Source of the DNA: a virus
Lineage: Duplodnaviria; Caudoviricetes
Direction: 5' to 3' (one strand)
IMG/VR virus record: IMGVR_UViG_3300042472_000140
Span: 1 to 61,147 of that record
DNA: 61,147 nt
Below are positions 1 to 29,600 of the stretch, one piece after another (the stretch's first letter is position 1; each line of letters begins with the position of its first letter). Under the pieces are notes generated by a model. It had not been told where the DNA came from. It ran no database searches and worked only from the letters and a program-made list of their open reading frames with translations. The position numbers and the translations under genes are program-made.

Positions 1-127
1 GAGGGCTTTAAAATGCGTGTCAAGGTTCTCGTTAACTTCTTCTGACGGTATGATGATCGTCTTTGACTGTCCTACGATCACCTTTGACGCACGTCCCAAC
101 CCAGCAAAGTCCACGTTGGCAACGTTG
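1..127. repeat. Terminal direct repeat, copy 1 (assembly overlap; circular genome of 61,020 bp)
   Basis: 1-127 is identical to 61021-61147; groEL stays in frame across the join. Confidence 0.97.
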
Positions 128-1038
128 TCACCAGTTGTTGCAGAGTAGTACTTACCACCCAGCGCAATAGCCAAGTCGGTCATCAACTCGTCCTGACGGT
201 AACCCATGCTCGGAGGTATGATGTTAGCAGCCTTGATTCTGCCCTCGTACACGTTCTTGTTCAACGTCTGTATCGTCTGTAAGTTCATCTGACCGATAAT
301 CAACAAAGACTCTCCTCTCTCGATGATTGGTCCCAAGATGGCGATCATGTGCTCCAAGTTAGTGATCTCCTGGTTGGTGATAAGAACGTACGGGTTATTC
401 AACACGCACTCGTTCTTACGAACGTCGTTCACAAAGAACCTACTAGTGAAGCCTCTGTCTACCTTGATGCCGTTAACAATCTCTGTGTGTGTCTTGGTCG
501 TTCGACTGTTCTCAACGGTTACGTGTGACACCTTGCTGTACGTGTCAGCGATAATAGCACCCAACCTTGCGTCGTTGTTAGCCGAGATGGTAGCAACGTC
601 TAAAAGTCTTTTGCCACTCACTGGCTTAGACATCTTGACCAACTGTGCGTCCATCTTCTCTGCGATGTCGTTTATGTGTCTTATTACCTCCGTCGTGTTG
701 GTTAGCTCGTCGATCTCCTCGTCAGCTGCGTTAATAATCGCTCCAGTGAGAACCACAGAGGTCGTAGTGCCATCACCTGCCATAGTAGCTGTCTGTGAGG
801 CTGCCTGACGGACTAGCTGCACCGCTAAGTTCTCAACTGGGTCGAATAGATTAATTCCCTTTGCGACGGACACACCGTCCTTCGTTATTGTTATGCCTCC
901 AGTGTGGAGTTCCGACTCCATAAGAACCGTGTTGCCCATCGGTCCTAGGGTTGATCCTACCGCCTGGTCGATCTTGCGTATTCCGTCCTTTAACTTCTGA
1001 CGACCTTCCTCGTCAAAGAATAATTGTTTTACTATCAT
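1..1038 (-). CDS. groEL: Chaperonin GroEL, N-terminal part (continues at 61020-60475; about 527 aa in total)
   Basis: Manual translation from ATG at 1038: MIVKQLFFDEEGRQKLKDG...STLGPMGNTV...ITKDGVSVAK...AGDGTTTS. Missing from the ORF track because it crosses the contig end. Confidence 0.95.
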   Translation of the reverse strand, partial: MIVKQLFFDEEGRQKLKDGIRKIDQAVGSTLGPMGNTVLMESELHTGGITITKDGVSVAKGINLFDPVENLAVQLVRQAASQTATMAGDGTTTSVVLTGAIINAADEEIDELTNTTEVIRHINDIAEKMDAQLVKMSKPVSGKRLLDVATISANNDARLGAIIADTYSKVSHVTVENSRTTKTHTEIVNGIKVDRGFTSRFFVNDVRKNECVLNNPYVLITNQEITNLEHMIAILGPIIERGESLLIIGQMNLQTIQTLNKNVYEGRIKAANIIPPSMGYRQDELMTDLAIALGGKYYSATTGDNVANVDFAGLGRASKVIVGQSKTIIIPSEEVNENLDTHFKAL

Positions 1039-1063
1039 TTAATTTAATTTTATGCGAATATAG

Positions 1064-1405
1064 TTATTTTATATTAAACTTCTCGTCGTAGTGCGATAAA
1101 ACTTTATCTGCAAACAACATCGGGTCCGAGTGCTTGACATCCGTGGCAGATATCACCGCCCTGCGCCACAGCTCAGACCGATGGATGTCGTGTGCTGACT
1201 TTCTGTCGGACTCCTGGTTGATGTGACTAGTGACGCAGTCTTCAATTGATTCAAAGCTACCGAACCTGGACATTAAAAATACGAACTCTGACGGAGAACG
1301 TGTTTCCTTGAAAGCCTTCAACGAGTCAGACAGAACTTGTGATGCGTCATCATCTTCAATTATCCTTACTATGTAGCTCCTAAACTCGTCCCTCAAACTG
1401 AACAT
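1064..1405 (-). CDS. Hypothetical protein
   Basis: ORF track 1064..1489; ATG at 1405 overlapping the upstream stop is the more likely start. Confidence 0.6.
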   Translation of the reverse strand: MFSLRDEFRSYIVRIIEDDDASQVLSDSLKAFKETRSPSEFVFLMSRFGSFESIEDCVTSHINQESDRKSAHDIHRSELWRRAVISATDVKHSDPMLFADKVLSHYDEKFNIK

Positions 1406-1695
1406 ACGTCGTAGTTTTCTTTGTACATGTACTCGTAGCTCACCTCCATCGGTGCAAAGCGTGACACTCGGAACGCTGGCTCCTGCCAACGACCTCCAAG
1501 CAACGGTTGGGGGATGGCTCCGTTACGTATCTCGTCCAATAATAAACCCGTCACTATACCGTCGTTGTCTAACACCTCCCGAATGGTGTACATGCTGTCT
1601 TTTTTAACCCATGTTCTGTATGCCTTCGAAACGAACATCAGCTGGTCAGCCTTGATGCTGTCGTCGATACATACGACTGATTGTCCTTTAGTCAT
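1393..1695 (-). CDS. Hypothetical protein (small beta-barrel/SH3-like phage protein)
   Basis: ORF coupled to neighbours; N-terminal GQSVVCID...YTIREV pattern. Confidence 0.7.
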   Translation of the reverse strand: MTKGQSVVCIDDSIKADQLMFVSKAYRTWVKKDSMYTIREVLDNDGIVTGLLLDEIRNGAIPQPLLGGRWQEPAFRVSRFAPMEVSYEYMYKENYDVCSV

Positions 1696-2072
1696 CTGTT
1701 CTTTAGTTCTTCGTTAAACGTCTCCAGGTACATCTCATCATTACAGAACCCTCCGTCAAGTATCGCCTCGATGTGGTCCGTAGCCAAGTCCTTTATCAAG
1801 ATCCACTCAGTCTCCAATAACCTATTCATGTCCTTGTCGTAGTTACGACCCCACCTAAGGTACTCCCGTCGTGTCGACCACTCACCGTCGTCGTACACCG
1901 AGATATCTGTGTAGTCCATATCGTCGAAGACCCTCCTTGAATAATCACTCCCACCGTCCACAGCGTAGTACCGACCGTTCGCATCTTTGTGCGAAACAAA
2001 GTCGTGTCTGTTAGTCGAAACGATGACCGTCCCGTCTGGTGTCCTAATTGCATTATACAGTACTCTCTTCAT
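1692..2072 (-). CDS. Hypothetical phage protein
   Basis: Coupled ORF; S-x-x-RHDF and AVDGG-x-x-Y-x-RR motifs. Confidence 0.75.
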   Translation of the reverse strand: MKRVLYNAIRTPDGTVIVSTNRHDFVSHKDANGRYYAVDGGSDYSRRVFDDMDYTDISVYDDGEWSTRREYLRWGRNYDKDMNRLLETEWILIKDLATDHIEAILDGGFCNDEMYLETFNEELKNR

Positions 2073-2241
2073 CCTCGATTTTTTTTAAAATTAATTGTCT
2101 GTTATACTCCTCCCTCTCGACGGCTTCAAACTCGTCCGCCCGAAGGTACTTCTTTATTCTTAGATCTGACAAATGAAGTTGATGTTTTAATCCATTCATG
2201 TTGTCTTGCTCTATTATCATCCGTTCTACAAAACTGACCAT
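2053..2241 (-). CDS. Hypothetical protein
   Basis: Short ORF overlapping the next gene. Confidence 0.55.
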   Translation of the reverse strand: MVSFVERMIIEQDNMNGLKHQLHLSDLRIKKYLRADEFEAVEREEYNRQLILKKIEDEESTV

Positions 2242-2253
2242 GGTTTAAGTTAA

Positions 2254-2600
2254 ATGTCGCTGTAACCCCCGTCCTGCCTACATTGTGTCGCAACTGTGCT
2301 GCAAAATGCTGCTGTAGTGTCGCAAAAATGCTGCTAGATTTCGGCTTAACGCTCTGATTATTAATTGTTTATCTGTTTTTAGTGTCGCTGGAGCGTCTCC
2401 GACGAAATTTTTTTTTTTTTTTTATTGTGAGGGTGCAATTATTCTTATTGCACCCCCTTTATATAGGCTACTTTTTTTTTCAAATTATATTTCTTCTTTT
2501 TTCCTACACAGCAACACTAAAAGAAAGAAAGAGTAGTGGTAGTAAGGATCTAGCTGATTTTTTTGCGACATTTTTGCGACATTCTGCGACATTTACCTAC
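2254..2600. repeat. Origin-like element A: convergent TGTCGC/GCGACA repeats around a T tract and hairpin
   Basis: TGTCGC at 2255, 2286, 2318, 2383; T16 run 2408-2423; 9-bp hairpin 2431-2455; GCGACA at 2565, 2576, 2587 (11-bp period). The origin role is inferred. Confidence 0.65.
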
Positions 2601-2679
2601 ACGATTTTGGTTGAATTTTGCGAAAAATCAGTTTTTGAGCAAAAAATAGAGCCGAAATAATTATCCGACAAACATTCGG

Positions 2680-3054
2680 CTAGTCTAAAATCTGTCTCGA
2701 AATTGTAGATTCTCCATAATGTTTAATGTAGCTAACCGCATACTGAACTCCATCCATTTCATAGAACCATACAATCTCGTCCTCTAAAATATTTGAGTGC
2801 TCGCCAATACTTGGTCTATTATAGTTTTGTGCGTCCGTCTTTAATAACTCTCTTAAGTACTCGTTAATGAATTTATCGTCCGATGTCATGTACTGAACTC
2901 CCTCGTAACCTTTTTCATCAAGCTCGTACCATTCTCTCTGTGGTTCATCCATAACACTTGGTGTGTATGTAGCTGGATTATATCTTTCAACTTGTGCCGT
3001 CGTAGTGAACATCATTCCGATTGTCATTGCTACTGTTAAAATTACTGTTCTCAT
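2680..3054 (-). CDS. Putative exported protein
   Basis: From ATG 3054: MRTVILTVAMTIGMMFTTTA|Q, a Bacteroidota-style signal peptide followed by Gln. Confidence 0.7.
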   Translation of the reverse strand: MRTVILTVAMTIGMMFTTTAQVERYNPATYTPSVMDEPQREWYELDEKGYEGVQYMTSDDKFINEYLRELLKTDAQNYNRPSIGEHSNILEDEIVWFYEMDGVQYAVSYIKHYGESTISRQILD

Positions 3055-3105
3055 CTTTATTAGTTTTAAGTTTATGCTTCGTTGCATACCTTAAATATAA
3101 GCATA

Positions 3106-3142
3106 AAAAAACCGTCCAATCAGCTTAATGTGATGGACGGTT
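3106..3142 (-). terminator. Intrinsic terminator
   Basis: aaccgtcca/tggacggtt stem with an A run on + (U tract on -). Confidence 0.7.
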
Positions 3143-3164
3143 AATAATTTAGGTTGAACGGTAG

Positions 3165-3632
3165 TTACAACTTCTTTGTTGTCTTTCTAACTGTGTAGTT
3201 AGTATAAGTCTTACCTCCTGATCCACCTTCTACTGGATTACCACTTGCGTCAGTCTGCATTCTAGTCTTTACTCCCTTGTGAGCTTCGTATTGTGCCTTG
3301 CTAACCATCTCAGTCTTACCGCCAACTTCTTTTCCTACAAAGTACTTATAAGGCTCTGAAAATTTCTTCTTAGCAGTGATCTTAATCTCTGGCAATGTAG
3401 TAACCTTAGATGTCTTCTTAGCTGTAACAGTTACCTCAGGTAAAGTCTTTACTGCTGGTTTACTTGCAGTTGTCTTCTTTACTGGTGTAGAAGATACAGA
3501 TTTAGATTGAGCAACAGTCTTCTTAACTGGTGTGTTAATCTTCTTGAATGCTGGAATAGTTTCCATAGTGCTAATCATAGTACCCTTCTTTGGAGGATTA
3601 CCAGCAGCCATGTTTCTTTGTGTAAATGCCAT
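3165..3632 (-). CDS. Basic Lys/Thr-rich protein with two LPE(V/I)x(V/I)TA motifs
   Basis: ORF track; TLPEVTVTAKK and TLPEIKITAKK; TACCTTTG promoter just upstream. Confidence 0.75.
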   Translation of the reverse strand: MAFTQRNMAAGNPPKKGTMISTMETIPAFKKINTPVKKTVAQSKSVSSTPVKKTTASKPAVKTLPEVTVTAKKTSKVTTLPEIKITAKKKFSEPYKYFVGKEVGGKTEMVSKAQYEAHKGVKTRMQTDASGNPVEGGSGGKTYTNYTVRKTTKKL

Positions 3633-3673
3633 AACGTTATTTTTTTAGTTTGTATACCCTGCAAAGGTAATGA

Positions 3674-3865
3674 TTATTTTTTATATCTCTTCACTTCTTT
3701 ATACCTTCCCAACACAGAGTCGCCTATGCCGACACCCTTTACAACCGTCTTCTTTACCAACCCGTTCGATCGCTTGACTACCTTGACAGTCTCCCTCGCT
3801 GCGTTCTCCTTGCCGTCAACACCCCTGGTGACAGTGCTGCTTGTCTTTGTCTTGTTCTTTCTCAT
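3674..3865 (-). CDS. Small basic hypothetical protein
   Basis: ORF with TAACTTTG 4 nt upstream of the ATG. Confidence 0.6.
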   Translation of the reverse strand: MRKNKTKTSSTVTRGVDGKENAARETVKVVKRSNGLVKKTVVKGVGIGDSVLGRYKEVKRYKK

Positions 3866-4002
3866 AGAGCAAAGTTAATGAAAATATTAGTATTAGTGCA
3901 TTATGACGCACTATCTTGCTTAATTAAGTATAGATGATCGGAAAATAACCGATTAAGTGCTTTATATTGCACAAATTAGAAGTAATACTGTGCAGAAAAA
4001 TG

Positions 4003-4632
4003 TTATATATTTGGGGGGAGTTTATTACTTTTCTTTAAATTATCTATCGCCCATAACGGCTGGAAGTTTGTGTAGTGACTTAATCTTATTACATCTTCTT
4101 CAATTTTAGCACTATCCAATGGTATTATGTGATCTAAATGCCACCCGTAATAAATATTATTATTCCAATTCATTCCATCTGTAAATTTTGATTCTATATA
4201 TTCTTTAAAAAATTCAATGCTACACCCAAGTATTTCTTCGGATCTTCTATTTTTTACTGTACCTATGTATTTAAAACATCTTCTAATACTATCTCTCAAT
4301 CTTCGTTTAAGTATATATAGTTCATTTGATTTATATTTTTGATAGTGTTTTTTATTTCTTTTTAATGCTGCGTCTTTATTTTTTTTATTATATTCAGATA
4401 TTTTATCATAGTTATTCTCTCGATAATTTTTCTGTGCTTGAATATGTTTTTCCCTATTCTCAATTACGTATTTTTTAGCATATTTACACCTTTCTAATTT
4501 ATTTATATTCTTTAGAAAACATTCTTTACAGTCACTTCTAAATCTTATGTCTCCATTATTTTTTTTGCCTTTTTTGTAAAAGCAAGATATTTCAAGCAAC
4601 TCTTTGCATTTAGTACATCTCTTAATTTTCAT
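4003..4632 (-). CDS. HNH-type (homing) endonuclease with N-terminal Zn finger
   Basis: CxxC...CxxC N-terminus; WHLDHIIPL...HYTNFQPLW...NLKKSN; much more AT-rich than flanks. Confidence 0.85.
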   Translation of the reverse strand: MKIKRCTKCKELLEISCFYKKGKKNNGDIRFRSDCKECFLKNINKLERCKYAKKYVIENREKHIQAQKNYRENNYDKISEYNKKNKDAALKRNKKHYQKYKSNELYILKRRLRDSIRRCFKYIGTVKNRRSEEILGCSIEFFKEYIESKFTDGMNWNNNIYYGWHLDHIIPLDSAKIEEDVIRLSHYTNFQPLWAIDNLKKSNKLPPNI

Positions 4633-4734
4633 GATAAAAAAATACCCTCTAGGGTTCAGCGTGGACGTGCTTACTTCCTAAAGGGTTTTATAATGTCTTA
4701 CATTCTGCGTCCACTCAGATGATATACAAATATA
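4633..4734 (-). promoter_or_regulatory. Promoter and structured 5' leader of the HNH gene
   Basis: TATATTTG -7 box (4727-4734); stem 4644-4654/4676-4686 followed by a U tract; loop 4661-4667 complementary to 4708-4714. Confidence 0.6.
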
Positions 4735-5009
4735 ATGATTTTTTTTAATATCATATATGCGGAGTGTTTATATAATATATACGTTTCAGGTAGAGTCGAC
4801 GCATAGGAAAACGGATTACAAACAGCATGGGGGGTGCTGATTTCCAGTCTTTCCGTCAGATTTTCTAGCTTTTTGTGTGGGGTGCAGTCCTACCTAGCTA
4901 CAGTCACGTTGTATGGTGGTTCCGTTGTGCTGTAGGTATCATGTTACGACCTATTGACCTACCGTTCGTCTGACTGACTAACTGTCTGTTGTTCAGCGAT
5001 GTAAGTTCT

Positions 5010-5037
5010 ATTTTACATAATATACCTTATAGGACAA
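5010..5037 (-). other. dif-like XerC/D recombination site
   Basis: Minus strand reads TTGTCCTATAA-GGTATA-TTATGTAAAAT: 11-6-11 layout with a near-canonical XerD arm. Confidence 0.75.
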
Positions 5038-5358
5038 GTCAACCTATCGCACTGTCTGTCAGTCTGTTAGTGAATCCATACGTACGTGTGTACGTGTGCG
5101 CATACGTGCGTGTGTGTTTCTTATATTCTTGGGACGAATGCGCTACATCCCTTTGTTTATGCGTGTTTAGGCATGGAATAACATCACCTCCCCATCTCCC
5201 CACATTAAATGTGAGTTTATCTGTCTGTCTGTTGTTATATCTGTCAATCGTTGCTGTGACTGAGTTGTAGCGTTATTGGTACTTGGTGGGCTACGTAGTT
5301 CTACTTAGATCGATCTACGTAGTTATACGTATTTTTAAACTTATATCAAAAAAAAGTA

Positions 5359-5388
5359 TTGTCAATCAAAAGAACCTCCGTATGTTTG
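5359..5388 (+). promoter_or_regulatory. Bacteroidota sigma70-type early promoter
   Basis: TTG at 5359, 19-nt spacer, TATGTTTG at 5381 (TAnnTTTG consensus). Confidence 0.7.
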
Positions 5389-5394
5389 TTTCAG

Positions 5395-5976
5395 TCAAGC
5401 AAACGAGCTTACTTAGTTTTTGAAATCCTTTATATATAACAAGCGACACGGGATAGGGAGTTAGCGTTAGGAGATGGTTAGTCTAGTCAGCGTATGCGAC
5501 AGAGCTAGTGAAAGTATTAACCACCGAGACACCTCTACTTAGAACGATTATCCAATGCGATGTTGAGGCAGTAAGACCCCAAAGACATCAGTTATAACAA
5601 AAGAACAATAAATAATACGTTACACCTCGGTAGTATGATTATTTAGTTTGAAGTGTGAAACCTTAAGGCATGACGGAAGCCCCAGTCTTAAGCAACTAGC
5701 GAGTAAAACCGTTCATCAGGATTTTAAACCGTTCATCACAATTGGTGAAGATAAGCGAAAGTGAATGACTAGATTTGAAATGTGTTAGCAATCGAGCTAC
5801 ACTATACGAAGGAGCGTAATCTCTGAACCCATTGATAGTATTGTAAGGGACAACAACAAATACTCAAAGTCTTGCCTAAGTAGATTGAATAGGTGCACAA
5901 GTTACATGGAGAAAGCGAGAGCTGACGGAAGTAATCGAGTAATGGAGGATAAAAACCAAGCATCGAAAAAAGGCTA
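5395..5976 (+). ncRNA. Candidate large structured ncRNA (about 580 nt; ROOL/GOLLD-class size)
   Basis: No credible ORF between the promoter and the hammerhead; purine-rich; nested complementary segments (GGATA/TATCC, TGGTTAG/TTAACCA, CTAG/CTAG, GTC/GAC, GAGG/CCTC). Confidence 0.55.
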
Positions 5977-6020
5977 TACAGATGTGTGTCTGTACTGATG
6001 AGTTCAAAAGAACGAAAGCT
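5972..6020 (+). ncRNA. Hammerhead ribozyme, type III topology
   Basis: GGC-UA / stem I UACAGA-UCUGUA / CUGAUGA / stem II GUUC-AAAA-GAAC / GAAA / GCU; predicted cut after A5976; stem III is short. Confidence 0.8.
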
Positions 6021-6041
6021 AACCAATTAAAAATAACGACC

Positions 6042-6281
6042 ATGAATGAATTATCATTAAAAGCGTTACTACTTGACACCATTACTTATTTAAAGTTTGG
6101 TACTCATTTATCAAGTAACTACAAGTCAACAAAGAAAGAGTTATGTATTCTTTTAGGACAGAAAACAAATATATCAGCTAGTCAGTTGTTGAATGGAATC
6201 GGACTTGTTTACAAGGATAACGGCAAAGAAGTTGAATTTTGGGCAACAATAGACAAGTTTGATGCTGAGAAATATTTATAG
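6042..6281 (+). CDS. Early hypothetical protein
   Basis: ATG 6042 after an A-rich leader; the track start at 5982 lies inside the ribozyme. Confidence 0.7.
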   Translation: MNELSLKALLLDTITYLKFGTHLSSNYKSTKKELCILLGQKTNISASQLLNGIGLVYKDNGKEVEFWATIDKFDAEKYL

Positions 6282-6308
6282 TAATTAACCACCAAACACC
6301 ACCACACC

Positions 6309-6416
6309 ATGAGCGTAAAAATCATTAGAATTGAGGGGAAGTTCGAGGTAATCGGATACTTTCAAGAAGGCGTACTAGTAAGAGAGCGCAAGAGATTAGT
6401 AAGAGACTGGAGATAA
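6309..6416 (+). CDS. Small hypothetical protein (35 aa)
   Basis: Manual translation MSVKIIRIEGKFEVIGYF... Confidence 0.45.
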   Translation: MSVKIIRIEGKFEVIGYFQEGVLVRERKRLVRDWR

Positions 6417-6508
6417 TCGGTCACCCTTAGGGGTGATTGAATGGTCTCATATCAAAACAATACCTTAAGAAGATAGATTAAGTAATTAACGTATAAAAAT
6501 TAGAAATT

Positions 6509-6724
6509 ATGAAAACGATACAAATTAGAATATCAAGAAGTTATTTTAAAGAAACATTTATAGATGTAGAAGTTGAAGACGGAGAATTAGATATAGATTT
6601 TTTAGTTAGTGATAAAGAAATAGATAAACGTTTAGAGGATGCGATTGAAATTGCTGATTTGATAGACGGAGAAACTGACTATGAATGGACAGATGAAACA
6701 GATAATAACGGTGGACATTTATGA
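6509..6724 (+). CDS. Acidic early hypothetical protein
   Basis: ORF track; very D/E-rich. Confidence 0.7.
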   Translation: MKTIQIRISRSYFKETFIDVEVEDGELDIDFLVSDKEIDKRLEDAIEIADLIDGETDYEWTDETDNNGGHL

Positions 6725-6867
6725 AATTTGAACTTCAATTTAAGACCTCAAACGGCTTGTACAAGAACTTCAGTAAGACGTTCAACAGCGAGAAACATCG
6801 GGACAACTTCATCGACAAGATGGAGCGAGAGTTCGGATGGAAATTAATAGGAATGACTAAAAACTAG
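6721..6867 (+). CDS. Small hypothetical protein (48 aa)
   Basis: Manual translation MKFELQFKTSNG...; ATGA overlap with upstream stop. Confidence 0.65.
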   Translation: MKFELQFKTSNGLYKNFSKTFNSEKHRDNFIDKMEREFGWKLIGMTKN

Positions 6868-6872
6868 AAATT

Positions 6873-7073
6873 ATGATAAAATTAACATCGCATTACAGTA
6901 AATTGCCAATACTAATAAATGAGTCACACATCGAGAGTGTATCTATTCAGGTTAACAACAGTAGGTCGGCATCCTTAGTTTATTATATAACCACTATACA
7001 CATGTCATCAGGTCTTATTTTATATGTAAAAGAGACTGTAGAACAAATTGAAGAACTTTTAAAAAATCAATAA
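6873..7073 (+). CDS. Small protein resembling the FlbD family
   Basis: MIKLT...LINESHIESV...TIHMSSG...VKETVEQI pattern. Confidence 0.55.
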   Translation: MIKLTSHYSKLPILINESHIESVSIQVNNSRSASLVYYITTIHMSSGLILYVKETVEQIEELLKNQ

Positions 7074-7075
7074 TT

Positions 7076-7282
7076 ATGAACGGAAAGATTCACGACAGCG
7101 TAGGCTTCACTAAGGTAGATGGAGCGATAAGACAGTTAACCTTAAGAGAGAGGTTACAGCAGATTATTAACTTGGGACAGCCGAGCGACATTAAGGGCGT
7201 TCGAACTACAGTAAGAGACGCAGAGATTGCGCTCGAGCGATTCAAGAGTAGTTTACTCGACGAGGAGATAGGAAGAGATTAA
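7076..7282 (+). CDS. Early hypothetical protein
   Basis: ORF track; its stop codon forms part of hammerhead stem I. Confidence 0.7.
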   Translation: MNGKIHDSVGFTKVDGAIRQLTLRERLQQIINLGQPSDIKGVRTTVRDAEIALERFKSSLLDEEIGRD

Positions 7283-7334
7283 CTGACGAGCTTTAGATAA
7301 GCGAAACGGCACAAGAGATTGTGCTGTCTTAATC
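7277..7334 (+). ncRNA. Hammerhead ribozyme, type I topology
   Basis: GAUUAA / CUGACGA / GCUU-UAGAU-AAGC / GAAA / CGGCACAA-GAGA-UUGUGCUG / UC / UUAAUC; GUC triplet, predicted cut after C7328. Confidence 0.92.
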
Positions 7335-7350
7335 AATTAAAACACACACC

Positions 7351-7605
7351 ATGAAGAACACAATAAGCAAGAAATACATAATTGACTACATCACTAGCAA
7401 CTATGGACCAATGAAGCACGACATCTATAGAATGTACTATGCTATAATATCAACATCTAAGGTATTCAAGCTAGACAAGAAGAGTCTGTTCCATTACATC
7501 ATCGAGCGGACTGACGCAATATTAGGAGCTACATCGTACGGATTTGATACTGCGTACGGTAGAGAGATTAGAGAGAGATTTGAGTATGAATATTATAACA
7601 ACTAG
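7351..7605 (+). CDS. Early hypothetical protein
   Basis: ORF track. Confidence 0.7.
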   Translation: MKNTISKKYIIDYITSNYGPMKHDIYRMYYAIISTSKVFKLDKKSLFHYIIERTDAILGATSYGFDTAYGREIRERFEYEYYNN

Positions 7606-10181: not shown

Positions 10182-10210
10182 GTAAGCTCCGACGGTAGGT
10201 TAAACCGTCA

Positions 10211-10286
10211 GCTAGTAGCTCAGTGGGGAGAGCGTGTTGTTTATAGGTTAGGCAACGAATGACGGGCGTTCAATTCGTCCCTAGCA
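10211..10286 (+). tRNA. tRNA-like RNA with short acceptor stem and aberrant anticodon arm (no anticodon assignable)
   Basis: D arm GCTC/GAGC; T arm GGGCG-TTCAATT-CGTCC; 5-bp acceptor GCTAG/CTAGC; 8-bp anticodon stem with 5-nt loop; no CCA. Confidence 0.55.
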
Positions 10287-10340
10287 AAAAGTCTTCGTCA
10301 AGACTAAAGCCATCGTGTATTGTGCACGATGGCTATAATT

Positions 10341-11220: not shown

Positions 11221-11784
11221 ATGAAAAAAATTAGCACATTATTTAAGAAAGACCCACAAGATTTGGGCAGAGTAATCAATGAAGTGAACCCTGAAAATGA
11301 GTGGGGGTTTACAGATGGAATACCAACACGAAAGTATGATGGAACTGCAACTGCTATAATTGATGGCGAACTTTACAAAAGATACGATGTGAAGAAAGGC
11401 AGACAAGTTCCTGATGGTGCAATACCTTGTCAAGAAGCTGATTTAATAACAGGACATCATCCACATTGGTTAAAATGTAGCCACGATAAAAACGAGGATA
11501 AATACTTTTTTGAAGGATTTAATTCACTTGCTGAACTTGGCACGGTTGAAGATGGTACTTATGAATTGATTGGTGAAAAAGTACAAGGCAACCCCGAAAA
11601 AATAGAAGGACATCATTTGGTAAAACACGGAGCAAAAGTTTTGCAAGGATTGATTAACCCAATGACATTTGAAAACTTAAAGGAATACTTGGAGAAAGTA
11701 GATATTGAGGGAATTGTATTTCATCATAAGTCCTATGGTCATATGTGTAAATTACGAAAATCTGATTTTGGAATACGGAGGTAG
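11221..11784 (+). CDS. Cassette 3 ORF: RNA-ligase-like nucleotidyltransferase (DUF5565/Rlig1-like)
   Basis: Ligase motifs I KYDG, III YELIG, IV EGIVF, V CKLR. Confidence 0.7.
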   Translation: MKKISTLFKKDPQDLGRVINEVNPENEWGFTDGIPTRKYDGTATAIIDGELYKRYDVKKGRQVPDGAIPCQEADLITGHHPHWLKCSHDKNEDKYFFEGFNSLAELGTVEDGTYELIGEKVQGNPEKIEGHHLVKHGAKVLQGLINPMTFENLKEYLEKVDIEGIVFHHKSYGHMCKLRKSDFGIRR

Positions 11785-23614: not shown

Positions 23615-23655
23615 AATGTCCAGTTAATTTCAAACTTAACTGGACATTCTTTTTT
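23615..23655. terminator. Terminator at the convergence of the two genome arms
   Basis: Perfect 13-bp stem AATGTCCAGTTAA/TTAACTGGACATT followed by a T run. Confidence 0.8.
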
Positions 23656-26600
23656 ACTTCCTCTTTGAATACTTCTTATCGTATATGTATAAGGCTTGCT
23701 TTGATAACTTCATCTTAGCTTTACCCATAACTTCAGATAGTATTTTCTTTTCTTCACTATCAAGTTCTGATCCGTATCTGTTATAAAGTCTTAACGCTTG
23801 AACTTCAGGAGTTTCTTCATACAGTATATCAAGTATCGACCTATCGATGTTCATGTTCTTGATGTATGCATAATATTTTTTAGCGTACTTCTCCTGGTCT
23901 TTTTTCTCAAAGTTAGTTTTTATTAAATCTACTAACTCACCATTTGACAACTCCTTCCCGTCCTTATATATATTCTTGATGGTGTTGTACACCTTCTGTT
24001 CTTTGTTATATATATCTGTCTCGATAATCATCTCTTGATTTTCTATCTTGTCCTCTTCCTTATATCTGATGTTATCTTTGTTAGTAGTTCTCTTTAACTT
24101 CCTAGCTGAAGCATCAAATACATTACTAAAGGCATCTGAGAATTCAGCTCCGTATCCATCCTTATTAAAGAATCCATTCACAGATGCATAAAATATAGAT
24201 ATCATAGGGTTAGTATTCTCACTTGTAACTATCTTCTCTATAGCCGCCTTAGTTCTAATAGGAGACAACCCTAGACTAGGTGCTATCTTTTTATATATCT
24301 CCTCTACCTTATCGTCGTACATTCCCTCCGCACTAGCTGCTATCTTTTTATCTCTAGGTTCTCTAAAGATTTTCTCCCCAGTAAATGAATCCCAGTTAAA
24401 ACTATACGTTAGAAGTCCAGATATAAGTGGATTTCTAGATGCAATATCAGACGGTGAGAATGGAGTTGATGCCGATATAGATTTATTTATCACCTCTTGG
24501 TCTACATCATATTTAATTCCTGCCTCTGATAGTAAGTACTTGTACGTGAACTGCTCTGCCACAGTAGACATTACAGATAGAACTGGTAATTTTTTTACTC
24601 TGTAGTACTCGTACTCTCCATCCTTATCCTTCTTACCAGTAAATATTATATGGTATGTTGCCTTCTCGTAATCAGATAATGAATCTAACACCTCTAATAC
24701 TTTCTTCTTCTCTTCTTCGTCATCTCCAACTGATCTCATAAGTGCAGCTAAAGACAGTGCCGCTACTGATCCAGCCATTACTGCCGCTTGAACTAAGCTA
24801 GAAGTAAATCCTAGTGGGTTATTTTTAGCGTACTCAAGAGGTCTTCTAAATCCTTGCATGGATGCATTTAAGTATGGCATCACATTATCAGCCGTCTTAA
24901 CCCATGTCCCTCCCTGATTGAAGTCCATTGTCTCTCTAGCATTCCTTGTTGCCTCGTACATTATATCATCTAGTTCCTTAGCGTCAGGGTCTCTTCCGTT
25001 TTCTTTTTTGAATTTAGATATCTCGTCACCTTTTACTTTATCATAAACAGCAAGTCTAAACGCAAGTTCAGATTTTTCTCCTAGGTAGGACATGATGTTT
25101 CCGTAGCCAACTAATACCTTCTGACTGATATTTAGTATCTTATTTTTAGGAGACAGTGACTTCAATGCTCTAAGACCGTCGTTAGATAGAAAGTCCATAG
25201 CTCCACCATGCTCAACGTATTCGTTGTATATTACATTCTTTCTATTCTTAGTTGCTACTCCCTTCAAGAACTTTCTAACAAAGTCATAGCTTAACTGAGC
25301 ACCTCCAACTAGCTTGAACTTTGAGTACACATCAGAGAAGAATAATATGTTCTGGAAATCTACTGCTGTGTTACCAATAATGAACAACGGGTTACCTCCA
25401 GTCGCAAAGAACCTTAGTATTTTAGCTCCAGTTAATGTACCAATTAAATTAAGTGCCTGGTTTGAAGACTTAATATCTAACAGCTGTGTAGCATATTCAT
25501 CTTTAACTACTAGGTCCGTCTTCACTCCATTCTTAAAGAATGACACTATGCTGTACCCTATAGGCACATTATTTTGGTTGTACTTATACTGAATAGACCC
25601 AGTAGATGTCTGCTTTACTATAGGGTTATCTATTATGAATTCAGACATAGCGTCTCTCTGTTCTTGAGTTGCTCCATCAATAGCGTCACTGAACTCATTT
25701 AGCATCTTATTCTCGAACGCTCGTCCTTCAACAGACATAACGTTCAACATAAGGAGCCACTTAGAGTCAAATATTATAGCGTTCTCGTTACTGTCAGTAA
25801 GAGCCATTATATCTTTCTTACTAACTCCTAACTTACTAGCCTCTCTATCTACAGTAGCTGGGTCTAAGTTATCTCCAATGATGTACTTAATAGTTCTAAT
25901 AGGAGAGTACTCTATATCTCTCAGGTTTATGTAAGTCTCTTCGTTTATTCTACCTGACTCGTACAGCTTCTTTAAGTTTTCTGAGAACACACCAAAATAT
26001 TTAGTAGCTCTTTCGCTTAAGTCGTTGAATTTCTTTTCACCTATCTTATTCTTTATAGCATCTAAATCTTTTAAAGCCTTCACCTCAGAGTAACCGTCCA
26101 TACCAGTGTATGGCTCTGCTCCTTGCTTGGCTCTACTCTCATTAATAGCTACCATACGTCTTGCGTATATGATATCATCAAGTGTATCTAAATCATTCTT
26201 TTTCAAATCTTTATAGATATCAGCCTCAGCATTTTTAAATCTGTAGTTAGCAAAACCACTAGCTCCAGCCTTGTTGACTAATAAGTTGTAAGCTCTTATT
26301 GACTCCTTGCTTCCGATGCCTTTAATTAATCTCTTAATGTCGGACTGTCTATCAATAAATTTATTTCTTATTGCTCTAATTCTATCTCTTATAGTCAGCT
26401 TCTTCTGTCTAGCCATAAGTTCTTTCTGACTAGCTTCCCTTATCTTACTCACAGTGACGTCACCAGTGTCTGGCTCCATTGCGTCGTTGATATTCTTGTC
26501 AGAGTATCCCTGGTCCTTTAAGTACTGACGGATAGCAGCGTCAGAGAACCCTTGGTCCTTAGTCAACTTAACTATGTCGTTGATGGTCTTAGGCTTCTGC

Positions 26601-29600
26601 TTACGTGGAGATATACTCTCTTCGATACCAGTAACCTCTTCAGCTATCTGCTTACGTGGTGTGATCTGCTTGGATATGTTCTTAGGGAACCTCTTGAAGT
26701 TTATGCCTCCACCTACTCCGTCACCTTTGAACGTGATCATGTCACCATCGATACTAGTTATCTTACCCTTAGACCCGTACACCTCAACGTCATCTCCTAC
26801 CTTGTAAGTTTCTTCAGCTATAGGCTTCATAGATACATTGTCCTTAGAAGCCTCAAGCGACATTGTAGTCTGTGCTCTGAGTTCGTTATTTCTCCATCTA
26901 GCAACGACCATGTCATACCCGTTCTCGTTAGCGACCTGAGTTATAAATGCCAACTGGTAGTTAGGGCTGAATGATTGTGAAGGACGTGCAACCTCGAATC
27001 TTTTCTTAGCCTCGTCATAGAAGTTTTCTGGATCACTATTAAAGTCGTACACCTTACCGTTAGGAACAAGGACAGTGTGTAGTACGTTACCAACACCTGG
27101 CTCAACCTGGTTGTCCATCGTGTAGTACATCGCAAGTCCTCCAACAGCAGATAAGGCTCCACCTTCTTCCTTCCCAGTGATGATATTCTCTCCAGTTCCA
27201 GGCTTAATTACATCTCTATTGTCGTTTGAGTAGTGATGGAACACGAAGTTTCCGCTCTTATCTTCAGTCAACTTGTTTGACAGCTCTGGAGCAAGTTGCT
27301 TTCTAGAAGAAATTTCTTTTATCCCTATGCCATAAGGAGCAACAACTTGAGATTGCTCAGATCGAGACATATCATCACGATATTTATCCTTTATTTCAGA
27401 AGGCATTATATCATAAGAATTAATTTTCTTATCTGGAACACCTACAACAGAACCTAATATATCTGTTTCATATGTAGAATGTTTAGATTTTTCACCTAAT
27501 TTATCAGCCTTTAAAACTAACATAATATCTCCCATCTCAAAATTATTATCTTGATAGAATCCATCACGTAAATCATTTGGATCAACAAATGCATTATATT
27601 TTTCTAATACTTTTTTTGCTAGAGTATTTTTAGTTTGTTGTTCATTTATAGCTATAATAAAATTCTTTCTATCAGCCCCCATAAATAGGTCTTCATAAGA
27701 ATTATATTTTTCTAATATAGATTTTATCTTAGATGTTGGTTTAGATTCTAGTAATTCTTTTTTAAAGTTATTAAATTCAATAGCTCCTTCAATTCTTCTT
27801 CTAATTAAATTAGTAACAGTCTTGTTGAATAATTTTGATCTCTGAGGGGATCCACTTATAATAAATATATAATCAGATTTAGCTATATTATTATCTAAAG
27901 TTTTCTTTTTAGCACCAGAAGCCCATATTACATTATTACTTCTATTCTCAGGATCTAACGCAAACGATGGTCCAGCATCTAAGAAATGTTCTCCATTTAA
28001 TACTGAATCAAAATAATTTCCTCTTCCTAATTGATCAGCAACCCAAAACCAAACCTTTTGTTTTTTAGATGAAATATCAGATATTAATGAATCAATATCA
28101 ATAATATCTTCTTTCGTTACAAAAGTTAATTTTTGATCTTTACTTACTTTTACTTGTTTTCTTGGTTCAGTAGATTCAACAATATTAGTTGTAACACCAG
28201 TTATTGACATCATATTAATATCAGCCTCACTAATCACCTTACCCTTAGCTACCTTTCTAGCTATAGTGTTGAGCATGTCGTAGGTCTCGTTTCTGTTGAA
28301 CGGATCTAATTTAGATATCTTAGCCAACTTATCTATCCATCTGAAGATAGTATCCTTAACAGATGTAGAAAATGAATTATAGTTCTCAGCTAATACACCT
28401 ACTAGTTCAGCTAGTTTCTCTTCGTTCTGAATATTCTCATCGTAGTTAGATATAAAGTCATTCAATTTTTTATTTACATCTACATCAACTTTAAGCCATA
28501 TAGCTTCAATCATTCGTTTAGTTATATCAGCAGCATTTTTATCTGTCTTAACCTTATTTATTAAGATAGCATGGAATACCTCGTGAGCTACAGTTCTATT
28601 GTTAGCTGACGTTCCATTAATATGTATGGTATTCGTTTTTGCATTAAACTCACCATTTGATGATTGCTTCAGTCCTTCTTCTTTTGTAGCAGCTCTATAT
28701 GACTCATCTGTATCATGAACTATAAACTTAGTGCCTGGTATAACCTTAGATACTGCCTTAGCTGCTCTAGCTACTGCCTTAGATATTTTCTTATTAACTA
28801 TAGTATACGCCTTCTGGTCAATCTCTTGATCTGTTCCAGACAATAACTGTCCGATAGCCTCAACCTCTTGCTCTACGGTAGGACCTTCTTTTGTAGCTGG
28901 TAACAAAGGAGTTATCAGCTTGTCATACTTGTCGTATATCTCGTTGTACTTCGTTAGGTCTTCAGGAGTCATTAGGGTCTTATCTACTTCACCGTTAACC
29001 TTGTAGTCTTCTATGTTAGGTATAACGTCAGATAACTCCGCTTGTTCTTCTGCTCTTAAGGTTGCTACTTGGTCTTGTTCAGTAGGTTGAACTGCTGATG
29101 CCTTATCTTGTAAATTAAACAATTCTGACTGTGCAACATCAAATTTATCTGCCTTAGAACGAAAGTCTGGATTAGCCATAACTTCCTCTTCAGTTAAACC
29201 TTGATCTTCCAACTCAGCTTGCAGGATGGTTTTTTCATCCCAAAGAGAATCAACTTCTGCCTGCTTAGCGTCTACTTCTTCTTGCTGTACTTCGCTTGTG
29301 ACAACGCTATCGCCACGATCTGCTTCTGGCTGCGTGGTTTCCCGTTTGCCCCCTTCGCTGATCCCGACTTCTTGTTGTCCTTCACCAGTTCTCTGATATT
29401 CGCTTGTACTGACTTCTTGGACGTTGCTTTCTTTAGTGGCATCTTCTGATATCTTTGTTAGTTCGTTATTTATCTCGGCAACTCTTGCCTTCTGTGATGC
29501 GACAAGGTTTTCATCCTTGCCAGCAATTTCTTTTTCTAGTTTATTTCTTTCTAATGTAAGAGTTAATGCACTCTTTAAATTCTCGCCAGTTATATTATCA

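Follow-up and report, generated by a model that had tools for sequence, protein, structure and literature searches.

What does a hammerhead ribozyme do at the head of a phage's early genes, and which of its two cleavage products does it serve? The question is raised by positions 5972–6020 (+ strand) of IMG/VR virus record IMGVR_UViG_3300042472_000140, where a first-pass annotation had proposed a hammerhead placed to cut the 3′ end of a large non-coding RNA (ncRNA). The stretch analyzed here, referred to as the window, is the entire 61,147-base phage contig. We computed the motif, its class membership, the covariation of that class and the conservation of its position, and on these sequence grounds we regard 5972–6020 as a genuine member of a large natural class of phage hammerheads. 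We judge it probable that the element is a constitutively self-cleaving type III hammerhead of this abundant class that trims the leader of an early message, to the benefit of the message downstream.

The whole motif has three helices around a core: a 7-pair stem I and a 4-pair stem II, each closed by a loop, and an open 4-pair stem III. As read from the sequence, the 5′ strand of stem III (GGCU) is followed by the unpaired A5976 (H17), together covering 5972–5976. Stem I is a hairpin at 5977–5994 in which UACAGAU (5977–5983) pairs with GUCUGUA (5988–5994) around a GUGU loop, forming six Watson-Crick pairs and one U-G pair. The catalytic core strand CUGAUGA lies at 5995–6001, stem II (GUUC-AAAA-GAAC, 4 pairs) at 6002–6013 with its strands at 6002–6005 and 6010–6013, and the core GAAA (6014–6017) runs into the 3′ strand of stem III, GCU (6018–6020). 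The stem III pairs are U5975-A6017, C5974-G6018, G5973-C6019 and G5972-U6020. The triplet C5974-U5975-A5976 conforms to N-U-H, as U16.1 pairs with A15.1 and H is not G, and self-cleavage is predicted between A5976 and U5977. The first-pass annotation had listed a complete core, a 6-pair stem I, a 4-pair stem II, a stem III of three pairs plus the core A-U, and a CUA triplet; all are in the sequence. Its predicted cut after 5976 has the core, helices and N-U-H site in place, and the coordinates agree with its 65-nucleotide (nt) leader (5977–6041) that would stay on the gene at 6042.

The three-way junction is the minimum-free-energy (MFE) fold of 5965–6030, and a descriptor search of both strands found 5972–6020 as the sole type III arrangement in the window. 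We estimated the chance expectation by simulating contexts of CTGATGA, a word that occurs 10 times in the window. Among 400,000 random contexts around this word, 5 had stems of at least 6/4/3 pairs, 154 had 4/3/3 and 882 had 3/3/2, corresponding to about 0.000125, 0.004 and 0.022 chance motifs per window, respectively. The Rfam Hammerhead_3 model (RF00008, clan CL00010) matched the motif with 25.0 bits, at an expectation value (E) of 0.0083 in 901 bases and 0.015 in 1601 bases.

Class membership carries more weight. A search pattern that fixed just GTGT, CTGATGAG and CGAAA, with no complementarity required, matched at least 125 viral loci. Full type III hammerheads were present in 122 of the 127 pattern matches listed, the other five being hammerheads in a shifted register. 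We aligned 87 distinct copies among the matches listed, with the window excluded; the alignment kept only copies that passed a stem filter, by which 5 of 127 were dropped. In this alignment 94.9% of cells were paired against 65.3% in shuffles (0 of 500 reached 94.9%), and sliding the partners lowered the figure to 31–44%. Compensatory double changes occurred at 14 of 17 pairs, stem I was 99.8% paired across the 87 members, and the 15.2/16.2 pair covaried across the class. A covariance model built from the 87 copies (R1) scored the window 57.0 bits (E 3.9e-15) at 5969–6023, aligning end to end, and gave no further match in the window. Hammerheads that cleave fast at low Mg2+ need a tertiary contact between loops 1 and 2. 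In the window these loops, GUGU and AAAA, equal the class consensus. Conservation of loop 1 is uninformative because the pattern fixed GTGT, whereas the adenines of the A-rich loop 2 are 90–100% conserved although the pattern did not fix them. Stem I of another locus, L241, has the same sequence as that of the window.

Compensated changes were also seen in pairwise comparisons. An exact search with the core and stem II found L001, an unrelated viral contig with unrelated flanks, in which core and stem II are identical to those of the window while different letters restore every pair of stems I and III, and in which a ribosome-binding site and an ATG come after the hammerhead. Taken over L001 and the group of L012, a relative described below, compensated changes relative to the window fall in all three stems. 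Rfam recovers this class poorly: on 20 class loci, 15 ribozymes were listed at E up to 1 with 35–48.5 bits, and 1 of 20 reached the threshold. The threshold thus excludes the whole class and not the window copy in particular.

Members of the class have a recurrent setting. Across 104 distinct sites, the nearest same-strand open reading frame (ORF) of at least 50 amino acids (aa) ends a median of 30.5 nt upstream of the ribozyme (n=92) and the next ORF starts a median of 23 nt downstream (interquartile range 19–33.5, n=96), with 21 nt in the window; at 28 of the 104 sites some ORF of at least 40 aa crosses the ribozyme, which we took as spurious. The 40 nt upstream have a median MFE of −13.6 kcal/mol against −6.35 when shuffled, and reach −10 or lower at 74% of 98 sites. 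The usual class unit is thus a stop codon, a hairpin, the hammerhead, a short leader and a start codon. In about three quarters of the class (viral loci L128–L252) the hairpin is GC-rich, often GGGGC-UUCG-GCCCC-like, and ends directly at stem III. With no U-run after it, the hairpin does not qualify as a terminator, and its probable role is to protect the 3′ end of the upstream cleavage product. Two or three ribozymes are present at several of these loci.

The position of the ribozyme is conserved in distant relatives of the phage, whose loci we collected via the HNH-type endonuclease gene (4003–4632, − strand), the last convincing gene before the gap that precedes the ribozyme. The relatives encode a GroEL about 48% identical to that of the window and have the HNH and GroEL neighbours and further proteins in common with it. 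Loci L012, L031/L033, L140, L218 and L240 amount to four distinct sequences, L012 being the same as L180, and L031, L033 and L240 being identical over the stretches compared. In L012 and L031/L033 the HNH gene is followed by a gap of at least 1.1 kb and then, on the opposite strand, by a type III hammerhead with a 7-pair, GUGU-loop stem I located 13 nt ahead of a small gene, with one or two type I hammerheads downstream. The ribozyme pattern scan supplied L140, L218 and L240, which extend at most 1.5 kb per side (about 0.3 kb for L218 and L240); within these short flanks a promoter-like box, a leader, the ribozyme and a start codon are seen.

Conservation in the relatives is discontinuous. The ribozyme is 93–97% identical among them, while the stretch upstream of it falls into at least three leader types that are unalignable or weakly alignable (71–73% at best). 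Conservation resumes further upstream, and both flanks of the leaders are 84–97% identical. Measured from box to hammerhead, the leaders lie at 4132–4315 (−) in L012, 4093–4243 (−) in L031, 1344–1493 (+) in L140 and 137–293 (+) in L218, and are about 145–185 nt long, 3–4 times shorter than that of the window. Upstream of all this, 4795–4900 of the window is alignable with L012, L031 and L140 and holds two direct TGGGG(G)GTGC-type words about 50 nt apart. In appearance the block is closer to a DNA site bound by protein than to an RNA, and the consensus fold of 4786–4925 with three relatives gave no clear structure on either strand.

The box shared with the relatives points to where the early message of the window may begin. 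A candidate early promoter, TTGTCA and TATGTT separated by 16 nt, lies at 5359–5388 (+), and a sigma-70-style promoter scan also lists 5359–5386. Its second hexamer overlaps TATGTTTG, which matches the form TAnnTTTG; this form, contained in CGTATGTTTG, we take to be the Bacteroidota −7 box. In the 1.7 Mb compared, CGTATGTTTG occurs nine times: once in the window (5379–5388), seven times in the relatives' loci, 178–212 nt upstream of the hammerhead core (four distinct relatives), and once elsewhere, at an unrelated location. Shared between window and relatives is the arrangement ATTGTNAAT ... CGTATGTTTG ... CAGT. Similar boxes stand directly before genes in L253, L327, L292 and L279, with AATCNAAAGAACCTCNGTATNTTTGTTTCA just ahead of the gene start in the last three, which are viral loci. 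L253, a metagenome contig, encodes a 72%-identical homologue of gene 6042, aligned from residue 1 of its 79-aa form. The L253 gene sits about 38 nt behind TTTG-N20-TATCTTTG, with GAACCTC before the box as in the window, and has neither a long leader nor a ribozyme ahead of it. The pattern GAACCTC(N)GTATNTTTG was found at 100 loci in viral contigs, which is about chance level by a rough estimate from an assumed collection size, and none of the 100 has a hammerhead core within 1.1 kb downstream; L327, L292 and L279, with their longer box, are three of these loci.

No terminator-like site was found on the + strand between 5359–5388 and the ribozyme, and two terminator-like hairpins (5077–5117 and 5252–5272) lie upstream of the candidate promoter. 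We infer a transcription start near 5395; cleavage could then detach about 580 nt of untranslated leader (5389–5971, +, its 5′ end approximate). About 30 nt upstream of the candidate promoter is a 40-nt near-palindrome (5292–5331, with TACGTAG...CTACGTA arms), which may be an operator.

Downstream of the ribozyme, a 21-nt A-rich leader (6021–6041, +) with no Shine-Dalgarno sequence leads to the first early gene (6042–6281, +, 79 aa, no family match). As its start, ATG 6042 is preferred to an in-frame ATG at 5982, located inside stem I, on account of the 21-nt spacing, which is the class norm, and of the L253 homologue, which aligns from residue 1. No relatives of gene 6042 were found in viral contigs. 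Further genes in the array likewise lack Shine-Dalgarno sequences, and the probable host is a bacterium whose leaders carry no such sequence. Genes on the + strand run from 6042 to about 23.4 kb, and we classed the array as early-type because it opens with many small ORFs; the hammerhead sits in this same-strand early array, in line with the early polycistronic mRNA of the first-pass annotation.

A second ribozyme lies within the array. The descriptor search and the Rfam RAGATH-1-hammerhead model placed a type I hammerhead with core CUGACGA at 7277–7334 (+), the Rfam match reaching 31.7 bits, below the cut-off of 56.3. Its predicted cut falls after C7328, 22 nt upstream of ATG 7351. Between this ribozyme and its start codon lies a leader (AAUCAAUUAAAA...ACCAUG) similar to that of the first ribozyme (AACCAAUUAAAA...ACCAUG). 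The two hammerheads bracket about six small genes and together would excise 5977–7328 with a ribozyme fold at each end.

Hammerhead cleavage is an internal transesterification that leaves a 2′,3′-cyclic phosphate and a 5′-OH. In the sequence of events that we propose for the window, early transcription would most likely begin at the promoter near 5359–5388 and pass about 580 nt of untranslated leader before reaching the ribozyme. Once 5972–6020 is synthesized, the RNA would fold and cut after A5976. The detached leader would keep its 5′ triphosphate and gain a 2′,3′-cyclic phosphate end, and the early message would start with a 5′-OH, a 44-nt folded ribozyme body, the 21-nt A-rich leader and ATG 6042. 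We judge that its most likely role is to give the early message a defined, structured 5′-OH end that insulates it from a variable leader, and such an end would probably protect the message from 5′-end-dependent decay. A benefit to the downstream message also fits the class, whose neighbours are typically a protein gene upstream and a start codon about 23 nt downstream, making the downstream message the apparent common denominator.

Several observations weigh against this account of a constitutive, message-serving ribozyme. The fold energy of 5965–6030 is unexceptional (z = −1.37), with 21 of 200 shuffles folding equally well. The Hammerhead_3 scan, which the first-pass annotation had proposed as a check, did match the motif, but at 25.0 bits it stayed below the gathering score of 48.5, so a gathering-level scan overlooks the motif; the Rfam score alone leaves hammerhead status open, more so when many windows are scanned. 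Within the class, a CUA triplet occurs in 1 of 87 members, and the 15.2/16.2 pair of the window is flipped (G15.2-C16.2), G at 16.2 being present in 81 of 87. Judged from the class, the rare triplet could make the window copy slower than typical ones; limited reading of the triplet-kinetics literature yielded no cleavage-rate data for CUA. The surroundings differ as well: no upstream gene stop lies within about 30 nt, the nearest same-strand ORF upstream (46 aa) ending at 5423, and the ribozyme has no GC-rich hairpin directly next to it (MFE of the 40 nt upstream −4.8 kcal/mol). The promoter is a motif match, and the pattern scan derived from it gave the chance-level counts described above. 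Finally, the proposed benefit extrapolates from 5′-end-dependent decay known in model bacteria to the host of this phage.

These observations bear on several rival explanations, of which the most direct is that of the first-pass annotation itself: that the upstream RNA is a functional large ncRNA of about 0.6 kb, or up to about 1.2 kb with a transcription start further left, and that the ribozyme exists for its 3′ end. The 1.4-kb gap between the − strand block and the + strand array (4633–6041) indeed holds no convincing gene under translation table 11, with TAG read as glutamine (TAG=Q) or under table 4. Under table 11 no + strand ORF in 5389–5971 exceeds 38 aa. With TAG=Q, ORFs of 80 aa (4735–4977), 144 aa (4989–5423) and 77 aa (5765–5998) appear on the + strand of the gap, with one or two TAG codons each; the latter two overlap the ends of the leader, most of which is left uncovered by any of them. 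Under table 4 one of 131 aa (4875–5270) is added, and none of at least 60 aa on the + strand inside the leader. Family searches supported none of the gap ORFs under either TAG=Q or table 4. Cleavage would give the upstream RNA a cyclic phosphate end, and the relatives keep an untranslated segment between promoter-like box and ribozyme. Yet an Rfam 15 scan of 4500–6100 returned, besides the hammerhead, only weak scattered matches (E > 1), none at gathering level, and 5430–6030 folds no better than shuffles (z = +1.77). No match to 4600–6300 was found by blastn in 50,697 phage records, nor any DNA homologue of the leader in the 127 fetched loci. The shorter leaders of the relatives yielded no consensus structure (consensus fold −1.24 kcal/mol), L253 manages with a gene directly behind a similar box, the hairpins at 5077–5117 and 5252–5272 would cut off anything further left, and at most of the 104 class sites a protein gene comes next upstream. 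We therefore consider a functional large ncRNA unlikely. Of the original claim, release of an upstream RNA stands, with about 580 nt and no terminator in between, but the functional, large and structured part of it finds no support. A related proposal makes something of the variability itself. That a segment flanked by two conserved elements, a promoter-like box and a ribozyme, should be hypervariable looks odd on the sequences compared, and since the leader differs between close relatives whose flanks are conserved, it could be a fast-evolving RNA cassette and not junk. Such a cassette would be expressed first and freed by the hammerhead, for example as a decoy or anti-defence RNA, with the ribozyme serving both products: maturing the 3′ end of the cassette RNA, which would end in a cyclic phosphate and be matched to the local host, and resetting the 5′ end of the message. 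The placement between two conserved elements keeps this idea alive, although we rate it as distinctly unlikely. The leader also contains a tandem direct repeat at 5706–5743, in which AAACCGTTCATCA occurs twice at 20-nt spacing.

The remaining explanations concern the ribozyme and its products. The first-pass annotation had suggested that the weak stem III makes cleavage conditional on upstream folding; in its general form, upstream folding or a bound factor would decide on cutting through the short stem III and so tune the early message. Stem III has just four pairs, one of them G-U, its predicted probability varies from 0.01 to 0.3 with the length of upstream context, and a 9-pair AU/GU-rich helix could join 5413–5421 to its 3′ side (26 of 500 shuffles reach this). 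Regulated cleavage is also raised as a possibility for phage hammerheads in the parts of Perreault et al. (2011, PMC3088659) consulted here. However, four pairs are nothing unusual for stem III in the class (19 of 87 members, with 3 pairs in 1 of 87), and the in-context stem III probability is low throughout (0.003 in the window against a class median of 0.01), a measure that does not discriminate. Long-range pairing to the 3′ strand of stem III was neither significant nor conserved, since in the relatives 131 to 480 of 500 shuffles did as well, and no aptamer-like family was matched. The conditional switch thus finds no support, and we hold regulated cleavage to be quite improbable. At the other extreme, the motif might be a chance look-alike or a decayed, inactive relic, in line with its Rfam score below the cut-off, its class-rare triplet and its unexceptional fold energy; moreover, a rate of about 1e-4 per window over some 250,000 scanned windows would produce some tens of chance matches. 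Against this stand the 57 bits (E 3.9e-15) from an independent class model, a core intact at every position, a location conserved in distant relatives with start-codon spacing at the class norm, and the identical sequence in contigs of four other lake metagenome runs, which together leave chance or decay very unlikely. It is hardly credible, in turn, that the two hammerheads release a 1.35-kb RNA whose ends are joined by a host RtcB-type ligase into a circular early message. The ribozymes at the 5′ and 3′ ends of block 5977–7328 are indeed of type III and type I, respectively, and hammerhead-made ends are established substrates of RtcB-type ligases. The phage's own ligase-like gene (11221–11784, RLIG1) is of the wrong kind for such a reaction, since we take RLIG1 to be an ATP-dependent ligase of 5′-phosphate and 3′-OH ends. 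Spliced or circular products of tandem prophage hammerheads were sought and none detected, according to the sections of Perreault et al. (2011, PMC3088659) that we draw on.

Elsewhere in the window, genes for terminase, portal, structural proteins, primase/helicase and GroEL are found. The GroEL gene spans the contig ends (1–1038 and 60475–61146, −), indicating that the contig is circular or circularly permuted. Genes within 1–4632 are all on the − strand, and the guanine-plus-cytosine fraction of the first 2 kb is 0.48 against about 0.36–0.44 elsewhere. The window's only tRNA is a tRNA-Pro with anticodon AGG (10208–10289, +, ARAGORN), whose anticodon region is about 8 bases longer than in the Rfam model (30.4 bits, just above the cut-off of 29). 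The RNA-ligase-like gene (11221–11784, +; PHROG 14301; Pfam RLIG1, 27 bits) is common to 48 viral loci at 44–96% protein identity; its flanks are not conserved, so it behaves as a mobile cassette, and its use as a synteny anchor over the 48 loci gained no synteny. A 2900-aa ORF (23654–32356, −) has no PHROG or Pfam match at the thresholds used. Of the 24 sequencing runs matching the window, 23 are DNA metagenomes from lakes or freshwater and one is an RNA run, containing 4% of the sampled words. Contigs from four DNA lake metagenome runs are identical to the window over 4600–7500, ribozyme included. These contigs showed no sequence variants over the interval and so no population-level covariation.

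The element is of a kind already known, one more phage hammerhead. Its interest lies in part in the class, since a simple 17-base pattern retrieves a large, cleanly covarying set of ribozymes that the Rfam threshold misses almost entirely and that annotation pipelines will for this reason overlook. It lies also in the layout of this phage clade, where a promoter-like box that is conserved and an untranslated leader that is hypervariable precede a ribozyme at the head of the early operon, a natural test of whether such ribozymes are insulators or stabilizers of messages or makers of 3′ ends for leader RNA.

Among known systems, the RiboJ-type insulator is an engineered hammerhead set between a promoter-derived leader and the ribosome-binding region, with an added hairpin after the ribozyme; it removes variable upstream RNA and leaves a 5′-OH message with a defined leader. 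The placement in the window is comparable, although its arrangement is natural and its effect on expression a proposed one. The type III hammerheads of viroids, satellites and plants (RF00008 seed) have the same topology and core as the window copy, but they process rolling-circle RNA replicons and their sequence model fits the window poorly (25 bits). Phage and prophage hammerheads are closer, as far as the portions of the two reports considered here describe them (PMC3088659, PMC6155905): like the window copy, they have a canonical core and lie in intergenic positions just before start codons, with types I and III close together in a same-strand array of small genes of unknown function, and their proposed role is to cut long phage transcripts into shorter messages. 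Prophage hammerheads flank genes and cleave in vitro and in E. coli, as stated in the parts of Perreault et al. (2011, PMC3088659) considered; de la Pena et al. (2017, PMC6155905, in the part of that article used) regard the role of hammerheads in phages as not yet settled. Unlike these, the window copy is not between two genes and heads an early array after about 0.6–1.3 kb of gene-free sequence, and unlike 74% of 98 class contexts it has no strong upstream hairpin. For such a layout there is nonetheless a precedent. In haloviruses HF1 and HF2, a hammerhead variant called HHphage precedes the first ORF of an early polycistronic transcript by 13 nt, and the 5′ end of this transcript was mapped to within 3 nt of the cleavage site, as given in the passages on these viruses in PMC3088659. 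HHphage, a structural variant, requires high Mg2+ and comes from viruses of archaeal hosts, whereas the window copy has a canonical core and a probably bacterial host; with a hammerhead ahead of the first early ORF, HHphage is, on what those passages report, the closest functional analogue of the window layout.

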